From an uncultured Eubacteriales bacterium (GTDB lineage Bacteria; Bacillota_I; Bacilli_A; RF39; UBA660), in contig CAUTAF010000002.1 of assembly GCA_963536495.1 (NCBI GenBank), positions 74,032 to 138,031 of the forward strand: 64,000 nucleotides of DNA. The letters run 5' to 3'. Shown piece by piece: positions 8,782 to 59,994 of the stretch. The first letter of the stretch is position 1. The number at the start of each line of letters is the position of its first letter. A program made the position numbers and the translations under genes. The notes below the pieces were generated by a model. It had not been told where the DNA came from. It did not search any database and saw only the letters and a list, made by a program, of their open reading frames with translations.

Positions 8782-9726
8782 CTAATTATTGACATTTGTC
8801 ATAGAATCTCTTCTATGTTTTAAAACTTTTACAAATTCTTTAATTGATTCTTTTTTATTTTCATGTGTTGTTTCTTTTTCTTCTTCTATATATTTATTAA
8901 TATCAAGAACAACAATAGAATCACATATTTTATACAAATAAAAACCATATAATTGAGAATAATCATTTGTTTCTCTACCATTTACCAAAGCTTTTATATA
9001 TTCATCTTTTTCTTTTAAAGTTACATAGATCGGAGGAATACCTGCTTCTATAAACAATTTATTAGTTAAAGCTCTTATAGTTCGACCATTTCCATCAAAA
9101 AAAGGATGGACAAGTAACATATCAGCACTTAATTTTACTGCATCGTAAATAAATGATGTTATTTCTTCATCAGAATTATTTTCTTTTAATTTTTTTGCTC
9201 TTTCTTCCAAAGATGCTATATCTTTATTTAAATATAATGCTTCTTTATATATATTTTCCCAAGCAACTAAATTAGTAGGGTCTCCCTTTAAATATGCAGG
9301 TGATCTTCTAAATTCACCACCACATTCAGAATATTTTTCAAATTCAAATAACTTCTTATGAAATTCTTTTAATGTGTAAAAATTTAAACTATCTATTTCT
9401 TCACTAACTAAAAAATGATATAGATTTTTCATCCCTTGTTTTTGAGCATCATTATGATCCATATCCTCAAATTTAAGTTCATTTTTAACATAGTTTTTTA
9501 TAAATTCTTTATCATTTAAATTATATGTCTTTTTCATATCAAAATAATCAGTAACTAATTTTTCAGGAAGAGATAAATCAAAACTATATAAAATACCATT
9601 TTCTTGTCTATATTTATATGCTAAAAAACGTTCAATTATCTCATTATAAGCTTCTTTATCTATCATATTCAACACCTCTTTCTTTATTAAGTTATGTATT
9701 ATATCAAATTTTTTGTTTTTTAGCAA
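8782..9726 (-). CDS. Fic/DOC family protein, putative AMPylase
   Basis: Canonical Fic motif HPFFDGNGRTIR. Confidence 0.75.
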   Translation of the reverse strand: MLKNKKFDIIHNLIKKEVLNMIDKEAYNEIIERFLAYKYRQENGILYSFDLSLPEKLVTDYFDMKKTYNLNDKEFIKNYVKNELKFEDMDHNDAQKQGMKNLYHFLVSEEIDSLNFYTLKEFHKKLFEFEKYSECGGEFRRSPAYLKGDPTNLVAWENIYKEALYLNKDIASLEERAKKLKENNSDEEITSFIYDAVKLSADMLLVHPFFDGNGRTIRALTNKLFIEAGIPPIYVTLKEKDEYIKALVNGRETNDYSQLYGFYLYKICDSIVVLDINKYIEEEKETTHENKKESIKEFVKVLKHRRDSMTNVNN

Positions 9727-20102: not shown

Positions 20103-20917
20103 GACTCACTACATATATTATTATCAATACCATGTCCAATTACAATACCTTGATTTTCTTCTTCATAATGAAAATCAGATCCAACACTTTCTAAAAGATT
20201 TAACTTTTTTGCTATTTCTTTATAAAATATAAAATCATCTTTAGTAAATGAAGAATGACAACTTTCAATTCCAATCAATCCTATTTTTTTTAAACTATCA
20301 ATAAGTTTAAAGATATTTTGTTTATCTATTTTTATTTTATTTGGATGAGCTATTATAGCAATACCTCCACTATCTATAATAAGTTTAATCGCTTTTTTAA
20401 TATCAATTTCATAACCAGGATATTCTGAATTATATTCTTGTATTTCTTTCGCTATATCTTGTGCTCTACTAAAACTATAATTATTTTTTATCAACAATCT
20501 TCTTATTTGCTCATCTATAAGCATATAATTATTTAAGTCTACTTGTTCTTTTATATAAGATGGAACATCTATTTTTTTGCAAGATATTTTATCTAAAGTT
20601 TCTATATGTCCCTTTTTTAGAACTTCTTTCATTCTAGATAATTCTTCGTTAAGTTCTTTATTATTTGAATCATAATCATACCCCAACAAATGAATACAAA
20701 TATTTTGATTCAAAAAATTATATTTTGTAGACAATTCTATTCCTTTTACGATTACAATATTGCTTTCAGATAAAATTTCATTAGATGGTATAATTATATC
20801 ATGATCAGTTATACTTAAAAAATCAACATTATTTTCTTTAGCTTTTTTTATTAAATTTTCAACTGATTCTGCACCATCGCTATATGTTGAGTGTACATGC
20901 ATATCTATATATTTCAT
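20063..20917 (-). CDS. PHP-domain phosphoesterase
   Basis: MHVHSTYSDG...ITDHD metal-binding motifs; overlaps the kinase gene by 40 nt. Confidence 0.65.
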   Translation of the reverse strand: MKYIDMHVHSTYSDGAESVENLIKKAKENNVDFLSITDHDIIIPSNEILSESNIVIVKGIELSTKYNFLNQNICIHLLGYDYDSNNKELNEELSRMKEVLKKGHIETLDKISCKKIDVPSYIKEQVDLNNYMLIDEQIRRLLIKNNYSFSRAQDIAKEIQEYNSEYPGYEIDIKKAIKLIIDSGGIAIIAHPNKIKIDKQNIFKLIDSLKKIGLIGIESCHSSFTKDDFIFYKEIAKKLNLLESVGSDFHYEEENQGIVIGHGIDNNICSESCSAKELIMRRKK

Positions 20918-20918
20918 A

Positions 20919-22388
20919 TTAAAGCTCCATTAATTCAATTATAACATTCATTAATATTTTCATTTTTTCAATTAATTCTAAATAATATGAAGAAAATGTT
21001 ATTCTTCCAACAATTTTTTCTGAATCTAATACTCCACAAGCAGTACCTGGAATAAATTTAATTTTACTATGTTTAAAAAGTTCAATTAAAAGATCATTAT
21101 CACTTTTAATTATATTTTCATTTATTTTCTTACTCTTTAATTTAGAAAAATCAATTAAAGCAAAGAAACCAGAAATTGGAATTATACCATTATAAAATGA
21201 TAAGATATTATTCCCTTTTTTATAATATTTTATTTCATCAATAGTTAAATTATTTTCAATGATTTTTCTATCTTTATTTGGTATAGTCAAAGCGCCAAGA
21301 ATAAAATATTTAAGTATTGATAAATTTAATTCATATTGTTTGTTAATATCAACTAAATATTTTTTTCTATAATTAGCTTTCATATAATTATCAGTAAAAA
21401 CAGAAGCTAATGCTATTTGGCTAAGCATAGAAACAGAATCTTGATCTAAAAATATATTATCTCTAATATCTTGAATAAAATATTTATTAGCTACAATAAA
21501 TCCAGCTCTTAATGATGCTAAAGAATAAGATTTAGATATACCAAAAAATGAAATAACATTATCTTTATACTCATCAAATGAATTTAAAGAAAAAGAACTA
21601 TATTCACTATCATAAACAGAATCTCTATAAATTAAATCTTCTATTATTAAAACCTTTTGTTTATAACATAATTTAGCTAATTCATGCAAATATTTTTTAT
21701 CTTTATAACTATAAGAAATACCTAAAGGATTATTTGGATTTTGAAAATATATAGCTGCTACCTTAGGAATATACTCATCTTTTTTATGAATTAAAAATAG
21801 TTTTTTATTAATATCAATTATTTGTTTTTCGAGGTTTTCTAAATTAATTTTCCAATTTAAATTTTGATCAAATTTAACCAATTCAATATTAGAGCCTAAT
21901 TTAAGCGGCTCATACAAAAATAAATTATATGTAGGCACTGGTATTAAAATAACATCATTTTTTCTTAAAACTGTTTTTAATATTAAAGAATATGCTTGGG
22001 TGGTAGATGAAGTTATAATTATTTCTTCTTCATTTCTAGATTTTATTCCAATTGAATTTAAATATCCAATTAAATTTTTTTTCACTTTAGAATCTCCTAT
22101 AGTATTTGGATATTGATTGGTATTATTTTCTTTTAAATAATAATCAATATCCTTTTTAACAAATTCATATTGTTTCCATTTTAATGGATTACCTCCACCA
22201 AAACTGATTACTTTTTCATCTTTTAGATATTTATAAATATCATATCTATATACATTAGAAGATTTTATTATTTTTTTTAAGTCTTCACTTAAATAATCAA
22301 AATTAATATTAATATTAGGACAATAATTTTCTTTTAACAAATATGATTTTCTTTTTAATAAATCATTCAACACAAAATCATTTTTCAT
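20919..22388 (-). CDS. PLP-dependent aminotransferase, class I/II fold, with N-terminal extension
   Basis: SKSYSLASLRAGF (PLP Lys, Arg), NPNNPLG. Confidence 0.65.
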   Translation of the reverse strand: MKNDFVLNDLLKRKSYLLKENYCPNININFDYLSEDLKKIIKSSNVYRYDIYKYLKDEKVISFGGGNPLKWKQYEFVKKDIDYYLKENNTNQYPNTIGDSKVKKNLIGYLNSIGIKSRNEEEIIITSSTTQAYSLILKTVLRKNDVILIPVPTYNLFLYEPLKLGSNIELVKFDQNLNWKINLENLEKQIIDINKKLFLIHKKDEYIPKVAAIYFQNPNNPLGISYSYKDKKYLHELAKLCYKQKVLIIEDLIYRDSVYDSEYSSFSLNSFDEYKDNVISFFGISKSYSLASLRAGFIVANKYFIQDIRDNIFLDQDSVSMLSQIALASVFTDNYMKANYRKKYLVDINKQYELNLSILKYFILGALTIPNKDRKIIENNLTIDEIKYYKKGNNILSFYNGIIPISGFFALIDFSKLKSKKINENIIKSDNDLLIELFKHSKIKFIPGTACGVLDSEKIVGRITFSSYYLELIEKMKILMNVIIELMEL

Positions 22389-23256
22389 AATATACCTCGT
22401 TTATATAATTAATTATTTTTTTATAATCTTTTATTTTTTTATCCATTCTAAAATATAATGTTTTATATCTTAACTTTTCTATATTAGAAAAAGAAGCATT
22501 TTTACAAAAAATTTCAAAAGGTAATTTTTCTATTGTAGTTTGTAAAATATCACTGTTATTCTCTTCCATATATTTATATAGTTTATCCTCTAATACAGAA
22601 AAACTTTCTTTATCAATATCAATTACAAATACTACTCTATGATAAGAAAAATTATCACAATCAATTAATCTGCCAGGAATCATTAAATTATCTTTTATAT
22701 ATTTATATTTTTTCTTTTTTTTTAAATAATTGAATCTATAAAAAAATATTTTTAAAAATAATCTTATTTTATCTATTGAGTTTATTTTAATTTTTGTTTT
22801 TAAATCTTTTTTAGAATATAAATAAGAATATTTTCCAAATGAAATTGGTTTTCTATTATTAAAAGAATAAATTATATAATCATATATTCCATAGTTATTT
22901 TTAATACCACTTTGACAAGAATCCAATATTTTAATAATCTTAGTTTTACTTTTGCTATAATAAATTTTATTATCAATAACAATATTTCCATATTGTTCAA
23001 CAAAAACTATTATTTTTGTTTTAAAAGAAATTTTTTTATTTATTTCTTTTTTATCTATCAAAAAATTATCATCTATATCAACAAATATTGGAATCAATCC
23101 GTTGCTTATAATAGTTTCAATTACACTTTCACATAACGTAACTGGAACTATTACTTCACTCCCTTTTTCAAAATTTAAATTTTTAAAAATTATATCAAAT
23201 GAATTAGTTCCACTTAATGCTATATTTTTAATAAAATTTTTCATTTTTATCTCCAT
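22378..23256 (-). CDS. divergent DegT/DnrJ/EryC1-like protein
   Basis: SGTNSFDII...GSEVIVP...PIFVDID and DSCQSG...SFNNRKPISFG resemble the DegT layout but are degenerate. The likely start is an internal Met (MKNFIKN) rather than the longest-ORF start at 23337. Confidence 0.4.
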   Translation of the reverse strand: MEIKMKNFIKNIALSGTNSFDIIFKNLNFEKGSEVIVPVTLCESVIETIISNGLIPIFVDIDDNFLIDKKEINKKISFKTKIIVFVEQYGNIVIDNKIYYSKSKTKIIKILDSCQSGIKNNYGIYDYIIYSFNNRKPISFGKYSYLYSKKDLKTKIKINSIDKIRLFLKIFFYRFNYLKKKKKYKYIKDNLMIPGRLIDCDNFSYHRVVFVIDIDKESFSVLEDKLYKYMEENNSDILQTTIEKLPFEIFCKNASFSNIEKLRYKTLYFRMDKKIKDYKKIINYINEVYYEK

Positions 23257-24190
23257 AATCATATAATTCTTCATATAAACTATGTTTTTTATTTTTTTCA
23301 TAATAAAAATTAAAATATAATTCTTGGTAAGAACCAAATGATAAATTCCAATTTTCTATTTCTTGAAAAACAGACCCTTCAAAATCTAAATATTTAGATA
23401 TATTATTTTTTTTCAAATATTTAATTAACTCAAAATATAATTTAGGAATAGGCGATGCATAATTTTTATTATAATAACTATACATTATATAACAATTAAT
23501 TTTATCCCAAACTACACAAATTCCACCAATTACTTTATTTTTATAAACAGCTATAAAACATTCACCTTTTTTATTTTCAATTGCTTTTTCAATATATTTC
23601 TTAACAAATTTTTCACTTGTTTTAGGACCATAATTATATTCCCATTTTAATGATTCTTGAAAATCATATAATGATATATCACCACTTTTAATATTAATTT
23701 CTGATATGCTTTTTATATCTCTTTTTCTATCTCTACAAAAAGAAGAAAATATACTATCAAGAGAATCAGATAAATTTATTTTATATGTATATCTGACTTC
23801 TGGAACAAAACCATTTTTTACACATGAAATTATATCTTTAATATACGGATCAAAAGAAAAAGAAATCGAATTATAATATTTTTTTAAATATTTTAGCATT
23901 TTATTTAGAACTTCCCTAGTATATAATAATTTTTTACGATTAGACGAAAAATTAAAAAGCAATACTGGTCCACCATATGGAATATACATAGTAGATTGTT
24001 CTAATGATTTATTTTTTTCAAACAGAGGAAAAAAAGCAACAAGCTTTTTATTATCATACACACATAATAATCTTTTAACTTTTTTTAATTTCAAAAAGAA
24101 TTCATAAGCAAAAGCTGTACCATTTAATGAATTGTCTACTAAAAAATCAATGTTATTTATATCACTTAGTTTATTAATCTTTACTTCCAT
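23228..24190 (-). CDS. FemAB/Acetyltransf_6-like (GNAT-fold) acyl- or aminoacyl-transferase
   Basis: C-terminal GNAT-like core (CFIAVYKNKVIGGICVV...YLDFEGS); paralogous to the next gene. Confidence 0.4.
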   Translation of the reverse strand: MEVKINKLSDINNIDFLVDNSLNGTAFAYEFFLKLKKVKRLLCVYDNKKLVAFFPLFEKNKSLEQSTMYIPYGGPVLLFNFSSNRKKLLYTREVLNKMLKYLKKYYNSISFSFDPYIKDIISCVKNGFVPEVRYTYKINLSDSLDSIFSSFCRDRKRDIKSISEINIKSGDISLYDFQESLKWEYNYGPKTSEKFVKKYIEKAIENKKGECFIAVYKNKVIGGICVVWDKINCYIMYSYYNKNYASPIPKLYFELIKYLKKNNISKYLDFEGSVFQEIENWNLSFGSYQELYFNFYYEKNKKHSLYEELYDYGDKNEKFY

Positions 24191-24986
24191 TTTTTATTAT
24201 TTCAAAATATACTCTTTTTATGCTATTTGTTTTTAGCAAATCATATATTTGATTATTCCTTCCAAATAAATCTATATTTAAAGTTTCTTCATCAGAAATT
24301 TTTTCTATTTGATGAAGTAACGCTATTATTCCTGCATTATTTTTTCTTCCTATATCAGTAGCTCCCCATTTTGATGCATAATAAATATTATCATATTTAT
24401 ATAACAATGAATAAGCTATTGGACTATTTTCAATATAAACTACTGTAATATAAGAAAATTTTTTTAAAGATAATAAAGAAATATGTTCGTAATACATATT
24501 AAGCATATCTGTTTTTTCTTTTCTCTTCCAACTATTTTGATCTATATATAAAATATCTTTCCAAAGTTCTAAAACATTATCTTCACTATCAACAATATTA
24601 AGTCTTTCAGATAATTTTTTACATTTTTTTATTAATCTTTTACAATTTTTACTTCTAGAAGATATATAATCTTTATAGTTTCCTTTTGTTATTTTTATAA
24701 ATGGTGCTTCCCATTCACAATTAATTTTAAGATTATATTTTGAATTTAAATAACTAAATACTTTTGAATTTTTATTAATATTTCTAAATTTTATAGCATA
24801 ATTTTTATTTATTTTATTTATTAAAAAAACATCATTTTCATTTAAATGAAAATCAAAATATTGAAAGCAATTTTTACCATCATAATATCTAATTATATCT
24901 ATATTATCAGATGAAGAAATATTTCTAACTGGAAAACGATAATATAAAGAAAGTCTATAGTTTTTATCGCTAGTAAAATTATACAT
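24174..24986 (-). CDS. FemAB/Acetyltransf_6-like transferase
   Basis: ITVVYIENSPIAYSLLYKYDNIYYASKWGAT...IDLFGRN pattern. Confidence 0.4.
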   Translation of the reverse strand: MYNFTSDKNYRLSLYYRFPVRNISSSDNIDIIRYYDGKNCFQYFDFHLNENDVFLINKINKNYAIKFRNINKNSKVFSYLNSKYNLKINCEWEAPFIKITKGNYKDYISSRSKNCKRLIKKCKKLSERLNIVDSEDNVLELWKDILYIDQNSWKRKEKTDMLNMYYEHISLLSLKKFSYITVVYIENSPIAYSLLYKYDNIYYASKWGATDIGRKNNAGIIALLHQIEKISDEETLNIDLFGRNNQIYDLLKTNSIKRVYFEIIKNGSKD

Positions 24987-26145
24987 TTTTATAATTCTCC
25001 AAATTTTGTTTTATATACTTTAAATCATTTTTACTTAGTTTAGAATTCAAATTTAACCAAGCAGTTCTTTGTAATAAATTTAAACTTTTATTACAATTAA
25101 CAACTTTATAATTATTATATGGATAATTATTTTTATATGGAGATAGTGAATTTATAAAAGTATTATAAGACGGTAAATAATTAGATATTTTTTTATGAAA
25201 TTCAATATTATTTTTATTCATATAAGAGATAAAATTATCGCATTCTTCTTCGTTATCAAAAGTTAATGATAAACTCAAATACACTGCTTGAATATCTTTT
25301 ATTTCTTTTCTAATATTATATCCAGTTAATTTGTTAGTTAAAACATTATAAATATATTTTTGTCTTTTAACTATTTTTTGATACTTATCTAATTGACCAT
25401 CTAAAATAGCACTTTCTAAATCTGTTATTTTTAAATTTTCACCATAAGAAATATATTTTTTATTCCACACTGGCATTTGATTGAATTCTCTTTCTCCACC
25501 ATTATCTGCAAAACGTTTTGCTACATTCATATTTTTTTTTGTAGTAAAACCTCCTCCTTCTCCGCAAGTAATTATTTTAGAAGACTGAAAACTAAATGCA
25601 CTACTATCACCAAAAGTTCCAGTATATTTATTCTTATATTTTGTTCCAAAAGATTGAGCTACATCTTCTATCAATATTAAATTATATTTTTTACAAAGCA
25701 TCATTATTTTTTCCATATCACATGGAAAACCTTGAAAATGCACAACTACTATAGCTTTTGTTTTTTTAGTTATCTTTTTTTCTATATCATTAACATCAAT
25801 ATTAAACGTATTATCTATTTCAGCAAAAACAGGAATTGCACCAACGTTTAAACATGCTGTAGCAGTAGCTATAAAAGATAAACATGGGACAATTATTTCA
25901 TCACCGTACCCAATATTATTAGAAATTAAAGCTAATTTTAACGCTGAAGTTCCATTGTTAACTAATAAGAAGTCTTGAGAAAACATTAAACTTAATCTTT
26001 TTTCAACTTTATCTGTTTTATACTGCATATTTACACCATCATACCTAAATAGACTTTTGCTATTTAACATAGATAATACCAAAATTTTTTCTTTAAAACC
26101 TATATAGTTCAAACCATAAAAAGCATCTGTACATATTTTTCTCAT
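24979..26145 (-). CDS. DegT/DnrJ/EryC1/StrS family PLP-dependent sugar aminotransferase or dehydratase
   Basis: GTSALKLAL, GDEIIVP, IPVFAEID, FSFQSSKIITCGEGG (PLP lysine). Confidence 0.8.
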   Translation of the reverse strand: MRKICTDAFYGLNYIGFKEKILVLSMLNSKSLFRYDGVNMQYKTDKVEKRLSLMFSQDFLLVNNGTSALKLALISNNIGYGDEIIVPCLSFIATATACLNVGAIPVFAEIDNTFNIDVNDIEKKITKKTKAIVVVHFQGFPCDMEKIMMLCKKYNLILIEDVAQSFGTKYKNKYTGTFGDSSAFSFQSSKIITCGEGGGFTTKKNMNVAKRFADNGGEREFNQMPVWNKKYISYGENLKITDLESAILDGQLDKYQKIVKRQKYIYNVLTNKLTGYNIRKEIKDIQAVYLSLSLTFDNEEECDNFISYMNKNNIEFHKKISNYLPSYNTFINSLSPYKNNYPYNNYKVVNCNKSLNLLQRTAWLNLNSKLSKNDLKYIKQNLENYKNV

Positions 26146-26148
26146 TTG

Positions 26149-27252
26149 TTAGTTCCTTTCAAAATCTTTAATTATTTCATTTATTCCATTCTTATTTATA
26201 TTTTTATAGAATTTTTTTCTTAAATCAAAATTATCTTCTTTATATTCAAAAAATTTTTTTATTTCTTTATTAAAATTTTTATAATCATATTTTTTCAAAT
26301 TCTCTAAAACTAATTTTATTCCCAAGCTTTCTTCTAAATAATATTTTATTTTTTTACATTTATTATTTTCTTGAAAGAAAAAATCTAAATTAAATTTTTT
26401 AAATTCTAATCTTTGCAAATATTGACTGTAATTAATAGGTAATAAAAATAACACCTTTATATTAGTTGATATTATTTCATTAAAATTACCTAGACCAGGA
26501 GACATAATTGCATAACTAGATTTTTTAATTATTTTTCTATATAAATTATTATCAAAACTATCTATAACAATATTATTATCAAATTTGATATTTTGTTTTA
26601 AGTAATTAATTATAAAATTTCCACCTGCAATATATACTTTTTCAAAATTTTTAATATAAGAATTTTTAAGAATAAAATTAACAGTTTTTAGATAAAAATT
26701 ATTGATAAAAGAGGAATCATACATATATGATTCTGCTCCACCTAAAGATATTAATAAATTATTTTTTTTACTATTATCTATAAATTTTTCTATTTTTCTT
26801 AATGATCCAACTTTTATTATATTAGACATATTTTTTGCTATTCTATTAATATTTTTATCACAAGATATTACATTAGAAATATAATATCTTTTTAAATTTA
26901 TCAACTCTTTTTCTATAAAGTCCCACATCCAAAAAATATTATCAATTAAATATAAATTAGATAAATGATATTTATTTATTAAAAAAATCAAAATATCAGT
27001 TGTTTCAATAGAAATAATTTTATCTGCTGTAAGAAAATACTTCTTATATTTTTCAAATTTTTTTATGTCATAATCATATGCTATTAATTTATCAAAAACA
27101 TTTTCTTTATTCGCTTTTTCTATGCACAATTTTGGACCAATAAAAATAAATTCATATTTATTTTTGTTCATTTTTGTTACTAAATGTATCGCTGTATTAA
27201 TAGGTCCATATCCAAATGCATCTGCTAATATTAAGATTTTATTTTTTTTCAT
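26149..27252 (-). CDS. putative GT-B fold glycosyltransferase or hydrolase (GT28/PseG-like)
   Basis: N-terminal ILILADAFGYGPINTAIHL pattern reminiscent of MurG/PseG; weak. Confidence 0.3.
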   Translation of the reverse strand: MKKNKILILADAFGYGPINTAIHLVTKMNKNKYEFIFIGPKLCIEKANKENVFDKLIAYDYDIKKFEKYKKYFLTADKIISIETTDILIFLINKYHLSNLYLIDNIFWMWDFIEKELINLKRYYISNVISCDKNINRIAKNMSNIIKVGSLRKIEKFIDNSKKNNLLISLGGAESYMYDSSFINNFYLKTVNFILKNSYIKNFEKVYIAGGNFIINYLKQNIKFDNNIVIDSFDNNLYRKIIKKSSYAIMSPGLGNFNEIISTNIKVLFLLPINYSQYLQRLEFKKFNLDFFFQENNKCKKIKYYLEESLGIKLVLENLKKYDYKNFNKEIKKFFEYKEDNFDLRKKFYKNINKNGINEIIKDFERN

Positions 27253-28246
27253 ATATTTTTTTGTTCATGTAAACGTTAGCATTATCACATTTGCTTTTGC
27301 ATTTACTACATTCTATCTCAAGTTCTTTTAATAACATACTATATTTTTTATTGCCAATAATTTGATTTAAAGGATTATCTATAAGATTACCAATAGCATA
27401 ATAATCTTCGTCTCTATGAACTGAACAATCACATGGATAAACATTTCCACTTACACAATCAATAAACAATGTATATTTTAATATCTTACAAGGTATTTTT
27501 TCTTTTCTGTAATCATCTCCATTATCAGAATATAAATTTTCTTCAAAATAATTAATATCGTCATATAGTAATTCAATATTATATTTTTTTATATTTTGTT
27601 TATATTTTTTTATATTTTTATTGTAATATTCAATTTGTTTTTTAGAAAAATAATATTCTGGACATTCTTTAATTATTATTGGATTTAAATAATCATACTC
27701 TACTGTTTTTTTCATTTCAATAAATTTTCCAAAATCATCAATGTTTTCAAAATTCAATACATGATTAATAACTATTTTAACATTTGGCAATTCATTTTTA
27801 ATTAAATTAATAGCTTTAGTTGCTATATCAAATATCCCTTTCACCCCTCTAATAGAATCATGAATTTCTGATTTAAAACTATCTATAGAAAAGAAAATAG
27901 CTTTAATATTATATTTTTTTAATTTTTTAATGTTAGATTTCGTTAAAAAAAAACCATTTGTAATAAAAACTATATTTAAACCTAATAAAGTTGCATATTC
28001 AAAATATTCATATATTTTTTTATTCGCTAAAGGCTCTCCTCCTCCAGTAAAATGAATATATTTACCACCATTGTTTTTAACATCCTTTAAAATTTCCTTT
28101 ACATCTAACTTTGATTCTTTCTCTTTTTTTTCATGTATATCACAAAATTTACATTTAGCATTACAAATATTAGAAATAGAAAGAAAATAATAGAGTGGAT
28201 TTTGACTGGTATTTTCTAATAAATCATTAAATAATTTATAATACAT
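27239..28246 (-). CDS. radical SAM enzyme with C-terminal SPASM/twitch-like cysteine cluster
   Basis: CNAKCKFC (Cx3Cx2C) and GGGEPL at the N-terminus; C-terminal CKILKY..CVSGNVYPCDC...CSKCKSKC. Confidence 0.75.
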   Translation of the reverse strand: MYYKLFNDLLENTSQNPLYYFLSISNICNAKCKFCDIHEKKEKESKLDVKEILKDVKNNGGKYIHFTGGGEPLANKKIYEYFEYATLLGLNIVFITNGFFLTKSNIKKLKKYNIKAIFFSIDSFKSEIHDSIRGVKGIFDIATKAINLIKNELPNVKIVINHVLNFENIDDFGKFIEMKKTVEYDYLNPIIIKECPEYYFSKKQIEYYNKNIKKYKQNIKKYNIELLYDDINYFEENLYSDNGDDYRKEKIPCKILKYTLFIDCVSGNVYPCDCSVHRDEDYYAIGNLIDNPLNQIIGNKKYSMLLKELEIECSKCKSKCDNANVYMNKKIYEKK

Positions 28247-28691
28247 TTAATACCTCCTTAATTTTATTCATTATAAGATTGATAGTATTATCTGATATTA
28301 AATCTTCATAATATACAAATTCACATTCAGTTAACTCTTTTAATCCCATTATCATAGGACTATACTCTAAGTTTTTATCTAAAAAAACTATCATCTTCTT
28401 TTTTTGATTACTTGCCCATCCAATTTCAACATGAACTCCTCCACTAATTGGGTTACCTGGTATTGCTAAAAATAAATCACATTCACTTATAGCTTTAGTA
28501 TCAGCTATAATACTTTCAGAAGGGCTAATATATTTTTCTCCCCACTCTTCCCTTTCTTGACTACAAAAATAATCTAAATTATTTTCTTTAAAAAAATTAA
28601 TTATTTTTTCAAAAAACCAACGATTTTCTAAAATAATATCTGAATCTTCTTCACAAAATTGTGAAAATGGAGATGCAAAAAATATTTTCAT
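28236..28691 (-). CDS. nucleoside 2-deoxyribosyltransferase superfamily protein (NDT/BlsM/MilB-like)
   Basis: IFFASPFS...DLFLAIPGNPISGGVHVEIGWA follows the NDT-family layout. Confidence 0.55.
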   Translation of the reverse strand: MKIFFASPFSQFCEEDSDIILENRWFFEKIINFFKENNLDYFCSQEREEWGEKYISPSESIIADTKAISECDLFLAIPGNPISGGVHVEIGWASNQKKKMIVFLDKNLEYSPMIMGLKELTECEFVYYEDLISDNTINLIMNKIKEVLNVL

Positions 28692-28692
28692 A

Positions 28693-30009
28693 TTATTTAT
28701 TTCCTTTCATTTCATCAAATTCTTTTTTGATATATTTATTTGTTCTATATATTTTTTCTTCTCTTATTTTTTTTATTTTTTCTACTCCAAAATATTCTTC
28801 CATTTGAATAATCATATTATGAACATCAGCTATTTCTTCAATAACATTTGGTAAAAGTTTATTATTATAGTCTTCTCTTTTATATTTACAAAGCGCTTGT
28901 ATTAATTCTCCCATTTCTTCTATAAGAACATTACTTTGACAATCAAATCCCCAAAAATCAATATAGAATTTTAAAAGAGCATTTGTTTCATTATCAGTTA
29001 AAGTTAAATCTTTTTTAATTAGTTCATAAATTCTAGTAGCTTCATCAAATTCTATTTGACCAACTTTATTATTATTAAATTTTTTTACATACTCTTTATA
29101 TCTACGTACTATTTCTTTTTTAGCATGTTTTTCGGCTATAGAAATATTTAAAATTCCACTTTCTATTTCGTTAATAAAAAATTCAATAATAGATTTTTTA
29201 TCTTGATCACAATCTGGAACTAATGTTTTTAACAATAAAAATGTTTCTTTGTCTCTTTCATCAATACATCTAAGCTCAGCATATTTTTGTAAATATTCAT
29301 AATCTATACAATCATTACCTCTAACATCACACATTGCCATAGACGCAGATAAGTTTATAGGATTATTAATTGAAAGTGTCGGTACTAAAAATGTTTCAAT
29401 TTTTCTATAAGAAGAAATTTTTTTATTTTTATTTTCATAAGCTATTTGCGATATACATGTAGCAAATTTTCCCGAGTTAGCTCCTGGACCAACTACAAAT
29501 ACTAATTTTTCTTTACACGGTATATATTCGTTTTTAAATATTCCATCTTTTGAAAAAACTTCTTTTATATTATAAGGATAGTTTGAATCTTCAAACTGTT
29601 TATATACATTATAACCTAAGTTTTTTAGCTTTTTTATATAATTATCTATTTTAGAATTTTTTCTATATCTCGTAATTGAAATATTAAATTTTATATTATC
29701 TTTAACAAAAACATTTATTAATCTTAACACTTCATCCATATATGACTTACAATTATCTTTTCTTTTTTTATTTTTTATAATTGATATTGAATTAATACAT
29801 ATTATCATCTCAAAATCAACATTTAAACTTTTTATTATTTCATATTTATTATCCGGATTATAACCTACAAAAACTCTAGCTGCATGTTGATCATCAATTA
29901 TTTTTCCACCAACTTCAATATATATTCTTTCTTTAATATCGTTTATAATTTCTAATATTTTTTCTTTTTCTTTTAAAAAATATTTTTTATTATCAAAATT
30001 TTTTTTCAT
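28693..30009 (-). CDS. two-domain protein: N-terminal P-loop-like region plus C-terminal MazG-like NTP pyrophosphohydrolase domain
   Basis: VVGPGANSGKF (GxxxxGK); C-terminal EEMGELIQAL...EEIADVHNMI, an EExxE pair typical of MazG; first gene of the operon with AAGGAA RBS. Confidence 0.5.
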   Translation of the reverse strand: MKKNFDNKKYFLKEKEKILEIINDIKERIYIEVGGKIIDDQHAARVFVGYNPDNKYEIIKSLNVDFEMIICINSISIIKNKKRKDNCKSYMDEVLRLINVFVKDNIKFNISITRYRKNSKIDNYIKKLKNLGYNVYKQFEDSNYPYNIKEVFSKDGIFKNEYIPCKEKLVFVVGPGANSGKFATCISQIAYENKNKKISSYRKIETFLVPTLSINNPINLSASMAMCDVRGNDCIDYEYLQKYAELRCIDERDKETFLLLKTLVPDCDQDKKSIIEFFINEIESGILNISIAEKHAKKEIVRRYKEYVKKFNNNKVGQIEFDEATRIYELIKKDLTLTDNETNALLKFYIDFWGFDCQSNVLIEEMGELIQALCKYKREDYNNKLLPNVIEEIADVHNMIIQMEEYFGVEKIKKIREEKIYRTNKYIKKEFDEMKGNK

Positions 30010-50703: not shown

Positions 50704-52002
50704 TTAATATCTCTTTTTCTTAACTATCTCTAATTCTCTAGGATCATATTTCATATTAGAATAAAAATCATCTTCTTTTGTTAGTGATAATTTTAATAAA
50801 TCTTTATCTGTTATTTTTACATCAAATGTTTTTATATTTTCATCTTTTTTATCTGTGTTCCAAAAATTAAATATATTATCTTTATACTCGTATCTTCCAT
50901 GCATAATAGATGTTCTTATTTCATAAATAAATTCTTTATTTGTTAAATTGTTTTTTAATTTGTTGTCTATTTTTAACAAATCATAATTATAATTATCTTT
51001 ATCATAACTATCATAATTATATATAAAATTTATATAAAATTTTGATAATATTATTAAAGAATTATATAAGTCGAATTCTTCTTTTGAAAAATTATTAAAT
51101 ATAGATTCTATATCTAAAATATCAACTTTATTTTCAAATATATCAATAAACTTGATATATGGATTATCTTTTTTAACATATAAATTTTTAGCTAAATAAC
51201 TTATATATTTTGGATTAATATTGTTATTTTTATCGTATGCTATATTTAGTTGATTCAAATCATATATTAACAAATTTCTTTGTGAACCATATACATATCT
51301 ATCATCAAAACTTGGTAAATTAAAAGTTTGATATTCACTTATACTATCATATTTACCAGAATTAACTAAAGTAAATCTTCCGTGAGCTATAATATTTCTA
51401 ATTTGAGTAAAGAAAAACTCTGTTATATTAGATTGTTTTATATCACCACTATTAATTTTAATTTTTCTAATTTCATTATTAAATTTATTAATACACTTTA
51501 TAACTGTACATCCTTTTCTTAACGATGTTATTACTCCATTATTTATAGATAAAATATTATTATCATATAAAAAATCCCAATCGTTAATATTAAAATAACT
51601 TGTATTTGTTTTTATGTCATAAATAGATAGTGTATCTTCAGGAATAACAAAAGATTCTCCTATATTCATATTTTTTTCTTTTAAATTAGAAAACGTATGA
51701 CCTAATAAAAGTGAAATTTTATTATCTTCTTTTATTTCAAAATGGTTCATATAATTATATAAATCTTCGTTTTTTATATATTTTTCTAAATCATCCTTAT
51801 TAGAAGTAATAGAAATTAAAGAAAATATCAAAAGAAGTAATTGGGGATCACTTATTTCAAATATATCAGAAAGATTTTCATTAACATCACTATATGCGTT
51901 TAATATTTTATTTACATCATATATAAATTTTTCTCTAGAATGTTCTCTTTCGTATAAAAGCATATCTTTAAATTTTGAACTTATTTGATCAAATTCTTGC
52001 AT
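50704..52002 (-). CDS. hypothetical protein with two Rx4H (HEPN-type) motifs
   Basis: FFTQIRNIIAHGRF and IYEIRTSIMHGRYEY lie about 170 aa apart. Confidence 0.45.
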   Translation of the reverse strand: MQEFDQISSKFKDMLLYEREHSREKFIYDVNKILNAYSDVNENLSDIFEISDPQLLLLIFSLISITSNKDDLEKYIKNEDLYNYMNHFEIKEDNKISLLLGHTFSNLKEKNMNIGESFVIPEDTLSIYDIKTNTSYFNINDWDFLYDNNILSINNGVITSLRKGCTVIKCINKFNNEIRKIKINSGDIKQSNITEFFFTQIRNIIAHGRFTLVNSGKYDSISEYQTFNLPSFDDRYVYGSQRNLLIYDLNQLNIAYDKNNNINPKYISYLAKNLYVKKDNPYIKFIDIFENKVDILDIESIFNNFSKEEFDLYNSLIILSKFYINFIYNYDSYDKDNYNYDLLKIDNKLKNNLTNKEFIYEIRTSIMHGRYEYKDNIFNFWNTDKKDENIKTFDVKITDKDLLKLSLTKEDDFYSNMKYDPRELEIVKKKRY

Positions 52003-56232: not shown

Positions 56233-56751
56233 TTACTTATCTTCCTCAATAAGTCCATAATTTCCATCTTTTCTTTTATATAATACTTTTATATCCATAG
56301 AATCAGAATCTTTAAATATAAAGAAATCGTGTCCCAATAATTCCATTTGTAACATTGCTTCTTCTTCATTCATAGGTATTAATTCTATATTTTTTCTCTT
56401 AACTATAGATTTTTCATTATCTTTTATTTCTTCTATTTCTTCATAGATAAATATTTCTTCTCTTCTTTTGGAAAGTTTAGTCTTATTTTTTCTAATTTGT
56501 CTTTCTATTTTATCTATTGCTAAATCTATACCAGCATATAAATCAGGATTTTTTTCTTCAGCTCTTATATATAAAGCCCCAGTATTTAAAGTAAATTCAG
56601 TAATATAAGCATTATTTTTATTACCAGAAAGTACTACATTTACTTCCATATCTTCTTTATTTATATATTTATTTAATTTAGAAGTTTTTTCTTCAACATA
56701 ACTCTTAATTGAATCTGTCACTTCAAAATCCTTTGCTCTTATATTTATTTT
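56233..56751 (-). CDS. hpf: ribosome hibernation promoting factor (long form)
   Basis: MKINIRAKDFEVTDSIKSYVEEK...; C-terminal dimerisation domain; likely start at the internal Met. Confidence 0.85.
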   Translation of the reverse strand, partial: KINIRAKDFEVTDSIKSYVEEKTSKLNKYINKEDMEVNVVLSGNKNNAYITEFTLNTGALYIRAEEKNPDLYAGIDLAIDKIERQIRKNKTKLSKRREEIFIYEEIEEIKDNEKSIVKRKNIELIPMNEEEAMLQMELLGHDFFIFKDSDSMDIKVLYKRKDGNYGLIEEDK

Positions 56752-56790
56752 CATACAAAACACCTCCTTATATGATTAATAAACTAATTA

Positions 56791-59700
56791 TTATTTACAA
56801 CTCCATTTAGGTTTTTGACAAACTGTAGTATTTCCAGCATTATCTATTCCTAAATAACAAGTCGATGCTGATTTTGCAACAGTACAATTTAAACAAAATC
56901 TATTGTTAGGATGTTTATCACAATATTTTTCTGTTTTTGTACCAAGATTAACTACTGGACGCATTCCACTTTCTTCATCGTAAAAATTACATTTTTTATT
57001 ATAACTTTCTCCATCTGAAGTATTACATGTATCTGGTTCTCTAAGACGAGGTGGTTCATCATCAATCTTAAATTCTAAACTACATCCCCCTTCATTACCT
57101 GCTGCATCCATCATCCATATTCTCATAGTTCTTGAAGAACCAAGTTGATGATTTTTATCTTTTTGTAATTTATTCATATAAGTTCTTGTTTTTGAAGTAA
57201 GTACAGAGTGTTGTCCTCCAGTTTTATTTTTGTTTTCCCAAATGTTATCGTGATTTTGCATAACAAACGTTGTATATCTTGGTTTTTCATTTCTTTCTGC
57301 ATCAGTAAAGGCTATTTTATTTACATTTGATAGATATTCCTTACTTAAAACAATAAATTTTGTTTTAGTTGTTATCCAATCATCATACCTAAAATTCCAA
57401 CTACTTTCATCATTTAAATAATCTCTATCATCTGGAGTTTCCCTAACTTCATCTCTTACCAAATCAAATGTACATACAGGTTTTGTTTTATCTATTAAGA
57501 TACCATATTTTTTAATCGTTGTTTTCCCTTGATGTGAAATACTTGTTCCTATACTCTTATCATCAAATGGACAAACTCCTAAATTACCAGCATAGTCATA
57601 TATAACTCCATATGGTTTAGTCCATGCACTAAAGTTAGCATCACTTAGATGATTATATGGATCTATTGCTGTTTCTTTTGTCATTTTAAATGTTTCACCA
57701 TCGTGGTCAAAATCTTGTTCTAACTTGATAAATTCATCAACGTTATAATCTTTTACTGCTGCTACATTATTTATATTACTATTATGTTTATTCCAATCAA
57801 CATTTGGATATAAAGCATTTGGTCCAACATCTATATAACTATTAGACAAATTATATGGTTCATTTCCTATTGGTCTTAAACATTTATAGTCATGTAATGA
57901 ATTAAGACTACTACCTCTTGCACTAACTCCAGTTGCTCTATCACAACTAGCTACATTAGAAAAACTTGAGAAGTATACATTAACATCACTACTATACCAC
58001 CATTTAACATTATTATTTTTTCCTTTTAATTTTATCTTACAAGCAGGAGTTTGTTTAACAATATTATTTACTGTAACTGATTGAGTAACTCTATTACCTG
58101 AATTATCTACCACCATTATATTTACAGTTCCGTTATTAAATACAGATCTATATTTTTCATAAGAAACTACCCTTTGACCAGCTTGTTCTGTTTCAATATC
58201 TTTAATACCACTTATATCATCTTTAGCATCTAAATATAATTGAACAGCATTTCTTGTAAATATTCTTTTACCTCTTACTGGATTTTCATTACTTCTCGTA
58301 TATACATAAACATTAGTTATATTAGAAATATCTCCTTGAATTTGTAAAGAATTTAAATCTCTTACTTCAGGAAATCTTAATAATACTCTTCTTCCACCCT
58401 TACTAATACTTCTTGTAAATGTTTCACCATTTACTGTAATTCTATATTCAGAAGAAGATGATAAATTGCTTAATTCTAAAGCTATAAGTTTAACATCAGT
58501 AAAGTCAGTAATATTATTTGTTCCCATAATACCCATTATCGGATCTTTATAAGTCCATTGTTCAGTTCCTCTAAGACCTTTTTTAATATTACATCCTTCA
58601 GATTGATTATCATAATCACTTTCGTATTGACCTGGGAAATATCCAACTAGTCTACAAGCTGATTTATCAACTATTAATTTTTGTTCACTATTATAAACTT
58701 TATATCCAAAGTATATATCTTCTGGTTTTAATTCAGGAGGTTTTCTATCTCTTGTAGTTTGATATGGATTTCTACAAACACTTCCATTACAGTGACTTCC
58801 GTTTTCTCTCCATCCTCTATCTCTATTTAATTCATTTCCCGCATTATCTTTAGCATACCCATATACTAAATTAATACCATCTTTTAATTCTATTTCATTT
58901 AATTGATTATATTTAGGATTATCAGGACTATCTCCAAGTCCCCAAGTAGATATACCACTTTCATTATCCTTTAAATAAGTTATTTCTACTTTATCATTTT
59001 TTAACCCTAAAGATAAATGTGGATTTCTAACATCCTGCATAACTTTAACTTCACAAGTTGTAGCTCTTCCTTTTCTATCATATACACTAACTTTATCAGT
59101 TAATTTATAATTTCCTGGTTTTGCTGTTATCTTTTTAGTATAAAGTTCTCTTCTACATCTTTCTCCACCAAGTTCATCAATACATCTTACAGATACTTCT
59201 ACATCTTTATTTGTCCATTTATCATTTTCCATTTCAACTTCACATTGAACCTTAGGACAAATTTTACCTTTTTCACACTTATTAGTACCTGGTTGATAGT
59301 TTTCATCTGTTTCGTCTTCGTCTTCTTCTTTTAATTTTAAAAGACTCTTACAGTCATCTTTGGATTTATTTTTTCTACATTCTAAATATTTATTTAAACC
59401 ATCATAAAGATTAGAACATCCGACTCCTACTTCATTACCACATATAATACAAGCTTTATATTCATAATTTTGATTACCAAGGTTTTTTATTTGAACAACA
59501 CTTATATCTTTATAACAATATCTTTCTTTTTCATCCGTTCCTTCTTTATAATAAGGATTTTTTAAATCATGTTCATATCCTTCTTCAATAAGTTGTTCTA
59601 AAGTTACTATTTCTCTAGAATTATCCTTTGGTACTGGACAATTTTTATCGTTTGCATCTTCACAATATTTATTTTCACTAAGATATGTACTAGTCATATT

Positions 59701-59898
59701 TTTACCAGCTGTTTTCATACCATTTTCATGACTTATAAGTACATTTTTTTTAGTTTTACTAATATATCCAGTTACTGATACTATTGCAATAGAACTAAGT
59801 ATTCCTATAATCACTATAACTGCAATAATTTCCACTAGTGTAAACGCTTTTTTATTCTTATGTTTACATTTTTTATTACATTCTATCTTTTTCTTCAT
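56791..59898 (-). CDS. large (1035 aa) Cys-rich surface protein with type IV prepilin-like N-terminus
   Basis: MKKKIECNKKCKHKNKK-AFTLVEIIAVIVIIGILSSIAIVSVTGYISKTKK: a class III signal/pilin N-terminal helix with Glu at +5. Confidence 0.6.
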   Translation of the reverse strand: MKKKIECNKKCKHKNKKAFTLVEIIAVIVIIGILSSIAIVSVTGYISKTKKNVLISHENGMKTAGKNMTSTYLSENKYCEDANDKNCPVPKDNSREIVTLEQLIEEGYEHDLKNPYYKEGTDEKERYCYKDISVVQIKNLGNQNYEYKACIICGNEVGVGCSNLYDGLNKYLECRKNKSKDDCKSLLKLKEEDEDETDENYQPGTNKCEKGKICPKVQCEVEMENDKWTNKDVEVSVRCIDELGGERCRRELYTKKITAKPGNYKLTDKVSVYDRKGRATTCEVKVMQDVRNPHLSLGLKNDKVEITYLKDNESGISTWGLGDSPDNPKYNQLNEIELKDGINLVYGYAKDNAGNELNRDRGWRENGSHCNGSVCRNPYQTTRDRKPPELKPEDIYFGYKVYNSEQKLIVDKSACRLVGYFPGQYESDYDNQSEGCNIKKGLRGTEQWTYKDPIMGIMGTNNITDFTDVKLIALELSNLSSSSEYRITVNGETFTRSISKGGRRVLLRFPEVRDLNSLQIQGDISNITNVYVYTRSNENPVRGKRIFTRNAVQLYLDAKDDISGIKDIETEQAGQRVVSYEKYRSVFNNGTVNIMVVDNSGNRVTQSVTVNNIVKQTPACKIKLKGKNNNVKWWYSSDVNVYFSSFSNVASCDRATGVSARGSSLNSLHDYKCLRPIGNEPYNLSNSYIDVGPNALYPNVDWNKHNSNINNVAAVKDYNVDEFIKLEQDFDHDGETFKMTKETAIDPYNHLSDANFSAWTKPYGVIYDYAGNLGVCPFDDKSIGTSISHQGKTTIKKYGILIDKTKPVCTFDLVRDEVRETPDDRDYLNDESSWNFRYDDWITTKTKFIVLSKEYLSNVNKIAFTDAERNEKPRYTTFVMQNHDNIWENKNKTGGQHSVLTSKTRTYMNKLQKDKNHQLGSSRTMRIWMMDAAGNEGGCSLEFKIDDEPPRLREPDTCNTSDGESYNKKCNFYDEESGMRPVVNLGTKTEKYCDKHPNNRFCLNCTVAKSASTCYLGIDNAGNTTVCQKPKWSCK

Positions 59899-59932
59899 AA
59901 TAAAGTAACTCCTATATTAATATAATATCATT

Positions 59933-59967
59933 TTAAAAAAAATAATGTGTTATTTTATATACACATT
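59933..59967 (-). terminator. terminator after the tagO/wecA gene
   Basis: AATGTGT-loop-ACACATT plus U-run on the minus transcript. Confidence 0.45.
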
Positions 59968-59994
59968 ATCACTTTCTATGTAAAAATACAATTC

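Follow-up and report, generated by a model that had tools for sequence, protein, structure and literature searches.

We describe here a giant protein with a type IV prepilin N-terminus, encoded within a 64,000-nucleotide stretch of DNA from an uncultured Eubacteriales bacterium (contig CAUTAF010000002.1 of assembly GCA_963536495.1, positions 74,032 to 138,031; hereafter, the window), which has a G+C content of about 22%. The gene occupies 56791..59898 on the minus strand, as do all of its parts given below, and in the ORF listing it forms a complete open reading frame (ORF) of 1035 aa, counted from the earliest possible ATG. We regard its product, with moderate confidence, as a giant modular minor pilin or (pseudo)pilin that would be processed by a prepilin peptidase and mounted on a type IV filament. 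The original prediction, made by a model from the letters of the DNA, had taken the protein for a minor pilin of very large size or a tip adhesin, or else for a surface protein with a pseudopilin anchor. The core of this proposal is broadly supported by profile hidden Markov models (HMMs), by matches to pilins in the PDB and by an invariant Phe+1 and Glu+5, while the features presented as odd proved to be ordinary. The ORF itself is real, as attested by homologues, conserved synteny and purifying selection.

The N-terminus was as first described, with an 18-aa Lys- and Cys-rich leader preceding a type IV pilin helix. The class III signal peptide leader (residues 1–18, MKKKIECNKKCKHKNKKA, 59845..59898) contains 9 Lys and 2 Cys and ends in Ala at −1, and the hydrophobic α1N segment that follows (residues 19–46, FTLVEIIAVIVIIGILSSIAIVSVTGYI, 59761..59844) begins with Phe+1 and carries Glu+5. 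Type IV pilins and other proteins with a class III signal peptide (PF07963, TIGR02532, IPR012902) have a short, hydrophilic, basic leader and then some 20–25 hydrophobic residues that form α1N, a segment of ~28 residues here. The leader lies within the matches to Pfam PF07963 (N_methyl) and TIGR02532, which also cover α1N. The window protein scored 26.5 bits against a gathering cut-off of 21.2 for the former and 25 bits against a cut-off of 16.3 for the latter. As these curated cut-offs were passed, the prepilin motif is, by the HMM evidence, authentic and no chance match. No other prepilin-type motif turned up when the 64 kb window was scanned in all six frames.

The protein had been called an orphan, which is right insofar as its gene is unlinked to pilus genes and wrong with respect to homologues, of which there are many. 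A word-indexed search returned 24 homologues, five of them full-length orthologue groups at 64–97% identity, whose summed cluster sizes amount to about 365 member sequences. The cluster containing the window protein comprises 59 near-identical full-length sequences (1035–1037 aa) in public assemblies, and the source organism has been assembled very often from metagenomes (about 120 SecA variants at ≥96% identity). The remaining homologues are 675–1595 aa long with 24–51% identity in the best local segment, and those aligning over at least one third of the query are 24–31% identical; the non-orthologous ones share the N-terminal third to two-thirds, and most of them contain PF07963. When 1.84 billion cluster representatives were searched exhaustively with a profile, 1,647 matched at E ≤ 1e-30 and 11,643 at E ≤ 1e-10, counts that include some non-pilin proteins, certain very long ones being matched only via repeated β modules. 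The 166 best family proteins have a median length of 1044 aa and a median Cys content of 3.1%, and by these measures the window protein is typical of its family, a large one found in uncultured low-GC gut Bacilli. The relatives that bear names are from gut metagenome-assembled genomes (MAGs) labelled uncultured Bacilli, Tenericutes/Mycoplasmatota, Mycoplasma sp. CAG:956 and Clostridium sp. CAG:524. No close orthologue was found among GTDB species representatives. Members are publicly labelled 'prepilin-type N-terminal cleavage/methylation domain protein' or 'type II secretion system protein', and our literature search found no paper describing this giant-pilin family. Some members (P0007, 1204 aa; P0009, 1595 aa) end in eukaryote-like thrombospondin repeats plus Flg_new, or in BNR repeats, and in such proteins the thrombospondin models TSP_1, TSP1_spondin and TSP1_ADAMTS scored above cut-off. 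Endings of these kinds would fit host- or glycan-directed adhesion.

Within this family, the pilin signature is kept. F19 (Phe+1), E23 (Glu+5) and G32 (Gly+14) were invariant in 20 of 20 and 23 of 23 aligned sequences, including homologues of as little as 22% identity; homologues lacking FTLxE, which had been named beforehand as a sign against a pilin, were thus not the case. An x-F-[TS]-L-x-E motif stood near the start of 138 of the 166 top family proteins, with Gly or Ala at −1 in 136. When the family profile was compared with PDB sequences, all 20 matches were type IV pilins or pseudopilins (best E = 2e-13), and the matches to solved pilins pass through the α1N helix. The leader is 83–100% identical among the five orthologue groups, both Cys included. 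These two Cys, at residues 7 and 11 (ECNKKC; 59845–59898), are kept in all five groups and missing in distant members.

The Ala at −1 is present as predicted (Ala18), whereas the Gly that it replaces is not near-invariant, as had been supposed. Among the 136 family proteins with the [G/A] motif, 107 have Gly and 29 have Ala at this position, and both occur among close relatives. Leaders of class III signal peptides end in Gly or Ala (PMC10191384), and according to the PilFind paper, prepilin peptidase 'cleaves at a glycine or alanine' (PMC3244431). Given this rule and the 29 relatives, Ala at −1 is an ordinary alternative to Gly.

Selection acts very differently on the two ends of the protein. 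In a codon-level comparison of the window gene with three orthologues, among them those at loci L088 and L089, the whole-gene ratio of nonsynonymous to synonymous substitution rates (dN/dS) was 0.16–0.46, and the whole gene is under purifying selection. For the pilin module (residues 19–160), dN/dS was 0.05–0.12, compared to 0.02–0.17 in the flanking tagO, rpiB, murA, hpf and secA genes. Between species (L089), the ratio was 0.4–0.5 in the middle of the protein and 0.74 in the tail, with values of 0.38–0.74 across the fast-evolving C-terminal half (residues 616–1035, 56794..58053). Identity to the orthologues was 89–96% in the pilin module and 34–58% in residues 616–1035. The pilin module is therefore the most constrained part of the protein, and the C-terminal ~225–420 residues are the most variable. 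In the second species, the order tagO–pilin gene–hpf–secA is kept and murA is 93% identical, yet the pilin-type protein is only 69% identical, which is consistent with a conserved assembly end and a hypervariable distal end.

The comparison with L088 (3001–6153) gave a sharper picture of the tip. As its tagO and rpiB are 100% and 99.3% identical to those of the window, the two loci are, by these genes, from the same species, and residues 1–615 of the pilin-type protein are 97–100% identical. In residues 811–1035 (56794..57468), a mosaic tip that includes the Cys-rich tail and is swapped in this same-species allele (P0002), identity drops to 66.7% (residues 811–945) and 42.5% (residues 946–1035). 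The synonymous rate (dS) was 0.45–0.63 in residues 811–1035 and 0.04–0.07 upstream, and dN/dS over the last 90 aa was 1.24. Because dS is about tenfold higher locally while the upstream part and tagO are near-identical, the pattern indicates that the tip was replaced by cassette-like recombination and not by point mutation.

Structure prediction with AlphaFold2 (AF2) gave a mean predicted local distance difference test score (pLDDT) of 64.8 for the full-length model and 75.8 for a model of residues 1–215. The leader was disordered and was followed by an N-terminal helix of 54 residues (21–74). By the AF2 model and the invariant columns, this helix (α1) belongs to a pilin module spanning residues 19–190 (59329..59844), together with strands at 95–99, 134–141 and 144–150 and short helices. 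C128 and C153 of the module were invariant in the 20- and 23-sequence alignments. In type IV pilins, the globular head is an antiparallel β-sheet that packs on α1C and is often closed by a disulfide. When the predicted fold of the small head of the window protein was searched against the PDB with Foldseek, no significant match was found. An acidic, low-confidence linker (residues 191–213, EEDEDETDENYQPG..., 59260..59328; pLDDT <50) leads to a region of about 850 residues consisting mostly of predicted β-rich modules.

The first two of these modules (residues 214–292 and 293–360, 58819..59259), supported by DSSP strands between 218 and 351 and by conserved columns, bear the family motifs WTN...C.D...GC...C.V.V and YGYAKDNAGN. 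C239, C248 and C282 are conserved family-wide; in the 20-sequence alignment, C248 was invariant, and W228, C239, C282 and D351/G354/N355 were invariant or nearly so. A larger all-β module, the family 'GYQIYP' module (residues 393–540, 58279..58722; DSSP strands 395–534, pLDDT 70–85), is kept in distant homologues with up to 63% query coverage. It is followed by a candidate OmpL47-type β-barrel-like module (residues 541–615, 58054..58278, with DNSGN at 598), for which NCBIfam NF047446 matched residues 549–609 with an E-value of 4.6e-7 and 30.2 bits, under the 40-bit cut-off; the same model scored 55.2 bits, above the cut-off, in the relative P0022. Residues ~645–755 were poorly predicted, and from there to the C-terminus the model shows β-rich modules with some helices. 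D-x-[AS]-G-N motifs recur at 351, 598, 768, 931 and 1019. The adhesin-like folds for which structure prediction had been proposed were found only in a generic form, as Foldseek matched the whole model to multi-Ig proteins (α2-macroglobulins, a fragment of the grappling-hook protein GhpA and the SiiE adhesin) with TM-scores of about 0.1. Since these scores are low, we read the resemblance as a predicted string of β-sandwich domains and nothing further.

The protein contains 34 Cys rather than the 'about 40' counted initially; two belong to the leader and the other 32 to the mature part. Its Cys content of 3.3% compares with 1.05% in the remaining ORFs of the window. The tail is Cys-rich, as had been noted, with nine Cys in the last ~100 aa, although it is not CxxC-rich; there are two CxxC motifs in the protein, CIIC at 150 in the pilin head and CLNC at 1002, the latter being the single one in the tail. 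All but five of the 34 Cys are preserved in all five orthologue groups. C87, on its own, is substituted in the orthologue P0001, and the patterns of loss across orthologues are identical for C652 and C673 and nearly identical for C993 and C1002, which fits the possibility that the members of each pair are disulfide partners. A motif search of the window found no thioredoxin/DsbA-type gene near the pilin gene.

The pilin gene is flanked by a Glycos_transf_4 (TagO/WecA-type) gene on one side and by long-form hpf, followed by secA, on the other, in line with its predicted placement between hpf and tagO. A Shine-Dalgarno sequence, AGGAG, was read from the upstream sequence at 59909..59913, 10 nt 5ʹ of the ATG. 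Further upstream, 3ʹ of the tagO-like gene, the centroid structure contains a terminator-like hairpin with a 10-bp A/T-rich stem and a U-run (59933..59970, minus strand), whose signal is weak (whole-region z-score −1.23; no call by a G+C-based scanner). As this hairpin follows the tagO-like gene, it suggests that the pilin gene may begin its own transcription unit. The gap from the pilin stop codon to hpf is only 36 nt and hairpin-free, so co-transcription with hpf–secA is possible. Promoter and terminator consensus scans of the window were uninformative in such AT-rich DNA. The mechanically assigned start of hpf (56233–56763), a GTG at 56763, falls within a Shine-Dalgarno sequence, AAGGAGGTG; translation almost certainly begins at the ATG at 56754, for a protein of 173 aa that matches the call in contig L001.

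The absence of pil genes from the window, as originally stated, was confirmed by reading all ORFs and by local HMMs for PilB-type ATPases and for A24 peptidases, which detected neither a PilB/ComGA-type ATPase nor an A24 peptidase in the window. Nor was any pilus machinery found in near-identical contigs that prolong it by ~10 kb on the left and ~6 kb on the right. The window gene and those of its relatives P0006, P0019 and P0024 are each solitary among housekeeping genes. Pilin-type genes are frequent in a set of about 45 loci from MAGs of uncultured Bacilli and often form tandem arrays; an ATPase or a peptidase is close by in almost no case, in contrast to the classical loci of Bacillaceae and Paenibacillus, where both are adjacent. 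Judging from these loci, prepilin-type proteins appear strongly expanded in this gut Bacilli lineage. Two loci from gut Bacilli/Erysipelotrichia MAGs differ in this respect: L026 (4669–15454) is a tandem array of five pilin-type genes of ~685 aa with no PilB-type ATPase beside it, and L008 (3937–6203) has four tandem small pilins (~170 aa) beside one.

Besides L008, one other exception, with a distant family member, links the family to type IV filament machinery and brings giant pilins and an ATPase together. In L086 (1–17547; ENA ERZ15610155, Mycoplasma sp. CAG:877-like, 31% GC), there is an array of four giant N_methyl proteins of 832–1053 aa, and every complete giant pilin gene is followed by one for a ~430-aa membrane protein with WG_beta_rep repeats. 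The regularity of this pairing suggests that the WG-repeat protein could be a dedicated partner or chaperone. The array is adjoined by two small pilin-like genes and a divergently transcribed gene for a 675-aa GspE/PilB-type ATPase, which has a Pro/Gln-rich C-terminal extension of ~250 residues and matches the PilB and GspE models at 1e-133 to 1e-139, better than ComGA. A homologue search with a relative's GspE/PilB ATPase returned only proteins of the Mycoplasma sp. CAG:877 lineage that were at least 91% identical. The L086 family member, P0022, is 24% identical to the window protein (E = 4.6e-5).

Among known systems, modular pilins are the closest kind. They comprise more than 1,200 proteins in 264 architectures, with an 860-residue protein cited as the most extreme multi-domain case (Raynaud et al. 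2021, PMC8179133). As a class they are established, a position at the filament tip has been proposed for them, and they are known to function as adhesins (PMC8179133). The window protein has, as read from its sequence, their signal peptide, α1 and extra modules; it would go beyond those described in its size, its Cys-rich multi-module stalk and its cassette-like tip. The modular minor pilins PilB (vWA) and PilC (lectin) of Streptococcus sanguinis type IVa pili (PMC8179133, PMC9934059) likewise combine a class III signal peptide, a small pilin module and C-terminal module(s) that are not pilus-specific, and they share with it a monoderm host, besides having an adhesin role and a proposed position at the filament tip. 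They are, however, bimodular and encoded inside a pil locus, whereas the window protein has at least six serial β modules and a Cys-rich variable tail, is unlinked, lacks a recognizable vWA or lectin signature, and is known here from its sequence alone. The large type IVb minor pilins of the CofB/TcpB type (PMC8179133) also join a pilin module through a linker to β-repeat or β-sandwich domains that database signatures do not recognize, and they are tip-located and initiate or cap the filament. They are proteobacterial, encoded in pilus operons and far smaller, and their similarity to the window protein was detected only in α1.

Type IVa major pilins (PilA-N of Geobacter, PilE1 of S. sanguinis, and PpdD) and the type II secretion system pseudopilin GspG have a very similar α1N with an IIGILxxIAI core and were the only significant PDB sequence matches. 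The similarity ends at about residue 65–90, and these proteins are 60–210 aa long, compared to 1035 aa for the window protein, which scored 28.1 on the PpdD equivalog HMM against a cut-off of 138. PilY1/PilC tip adhesins of type IVa pili (PMC8179133) offer a functional analogy as large modular adhesins at the pilus tip with a variable effector part; PilY1, though, is a non-pilin without a class III signal peptide that docks on minor pilins through a β-propeller, and no β-propeller was detected in the window protein. OmpL47-type multi-β-barrel proteins (NF047446/NF047441) have similar D-x-A-G-N modules, with the match of the window protein below the cut-off and that of P0022 above it, but OmpL47 lacks a pilin N-terminus and is a surface protein of the Leptospira outer membrane.

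Several other assignments were considered and rejected. A type II secretion system pseudopilin was set aside at scores of 22.6 against 88.85 for GspG and 17.5 against 80 for GspH, with coverage of α1 only, as was a Com pilus pilin (ComGC, 16.2 against 75; ComGE, 10.9 against 49; no comG genes in the window). A sortase-anchored LPXTG adhesin does not agree with the C-terminus, ...TVCQKPKWSCK, where LPXTG and a hydrophobic stretch are both absent. The idea of a competence-rich RF39/'Comantemales' group was dropped, as Comantemales is, in the literature, a different order (4C28d-15).

For a giant modular pilin, the following course may be envisaged. The signal recognition particle and Sec would insert the protein with its leader staying in the cytoplasm; a prepilin peptidase encoded elsewhere in the genome would cut after Ala18; and α1N would hold the mature protein in the membrane. 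A GspE/PilB-type filament machine would then extract it and build it into a short filament, where the tip would be its most likely position, since cargo of this bulk would not fit into the filament body. The β modules, probably braced by disulfides, would form a chain that acts as a stalk through the cell wall, with the hypervariable, Cys-rich C-terminal module as a ligand-binding, adhesive end. A number of points weigh against this reading. The ~80 kb around the gene lack a prepilin peptidase, an assembly ATPase, a platform protein and any further pilin; such lack of linkage is the rule for giant pilin genes in this lineage, and the sole ATPase-linked giant member, P0022, is by its 24% identity a distant relative. 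To our knowledge, no experiment shows cargo of such a size mounted on a filament or crossing a Gram-positive wall in this manner. The disulfide bracing is predicted for a host that is probably a gut anaerobe, and the adhesive role is suggested only by architecture and variability. With ~115 kDa, the predicted product is also larger than any modular pilin highlighted in PMC8179133, where the longest has 860 aa. With the machinery unlinked and the cargo size unprecedented, the filament part of the reading calls for caution.

Some of these points lend weight to a different use of the prepilin N-terminus, which, cleaved or not, might serve only as an N-in/C-out anchor for a wall-spanning adhesin that never polymerizes. 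The gene stands alone amid housekeeping genes, as do those of several relatives, which would agree with this, as would a cargo bigger than the modular pilins highlighted in PMC8179133, ~850 residues of serial β-rich modules without a C-terminal anchor motif, and an inferred stalk length that could reach from the membrane through a Gram-positive wall. A plain anchor, however, needs neither an invariant Phe+1 and Glu+5 nor a leader ending in Gly or Ala, and the family keeps all of these. The pilin module, its soluble head included, is constrained like housekeeping genes, to a degree (dN/dS 0.05–0.12) that would not be expected of a bare membrane anchor, and one relative (P0022) adjoins an assembly ATPase and small pilins. 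Because of the invariant residues and the housekeeping-level constraint in particular, we consider a simple anchor possible but on the whole doubtful.

In the archaeal 'bindosome', non-pilin proteins carry pilin-type signals. By analogy, the class III signal could be a general export and assembly signal here, and the giants a cargo organized on the cell surface by a dedicated ATPase and partners, as opposed to subunits of a classical pilus. The many pilin-type genes of the lineage and their tandem arrays (five in L026; four giants paired with WG-repeat proteins in L086) would suit such a display, and so would the wide differences among the C-terminal modules of family members (Flg_new, TSP1, BNR). 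No WG-repeat gene or ATPase adjoins the window gene, however, and the data do not separate such a display from tip-located modular pilins. We think it improbable. That the ORF arose by chance or is degenerate, or that a Sec-type signal anchor mimics the prepilin motif, might be imagined, given that DNA as AT-rich as this (22% GC) commonly has long ORFs and Lys-rich N-termini. These possibilities are effectively refuted by HMM scores beyond curated cut-offs, invariant columns in a motif common to thousands of homologues, ~365 full-length orthologue sequences in five groups, synteny in a second species and purifying selection.

A wider and decidedly speculative proposal, which we consider rather unlikely, is that uncultured gut Bacilli of very low GC took over the class III signal as their general means of mounting a large repertoire of giant (700 to >2,000 aa), probably disulfide-braced adhesin stalks whose tips are swapped between strains like cassettes. 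A GspE/PilB-type ATPase encoded at another locus would display them either one by one, as pilin-anchored fibrils spanning the wall, or on very short filaments, in a manner distinct from both classical pili and sortase anchoring.

Elsewhere in the window, a minus-strand run at 20900–30000 was read by eye from the translations as a putative sugar/cell-envelope modification cluster. Its genes include a putative aminotransferase and a putative glycosyltransferase, a radical-SAM-like gene whose product has a Cys-rich C-terminus, and two paralogous uncharacterized genes, and many of them have no clear family. Among housekeeping genes lie a Fic-domain protein (8782–9726), matched by PF02661 in the near-identical contig L081, and a protein of 432 aa (50704–52002) for which pEK499_p136 gave just a faint match; both may be toxin- or defence-related.

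For annotation, these results mean that Ala at −1 is no anomaly and that proteins of this kind are normally encoded away from pilus genes. The acquisition of new functions by simple type IV filaments is explained by modular pilins, of which the few that have been studied are small. The window protein and its family would extend the concept to ~115 kDa and beyond, which raises the question of how such large cargo is extracted, mounted and passed through a Gram-positive wall. A constrained assembly end combined with a mosaic, fast-evolving tip is what would be expected of a colonization or cell-contact factor under diversifying pressure, and this combination makes the protein a reasonable candidate adhesin for organisms that lack genetics.

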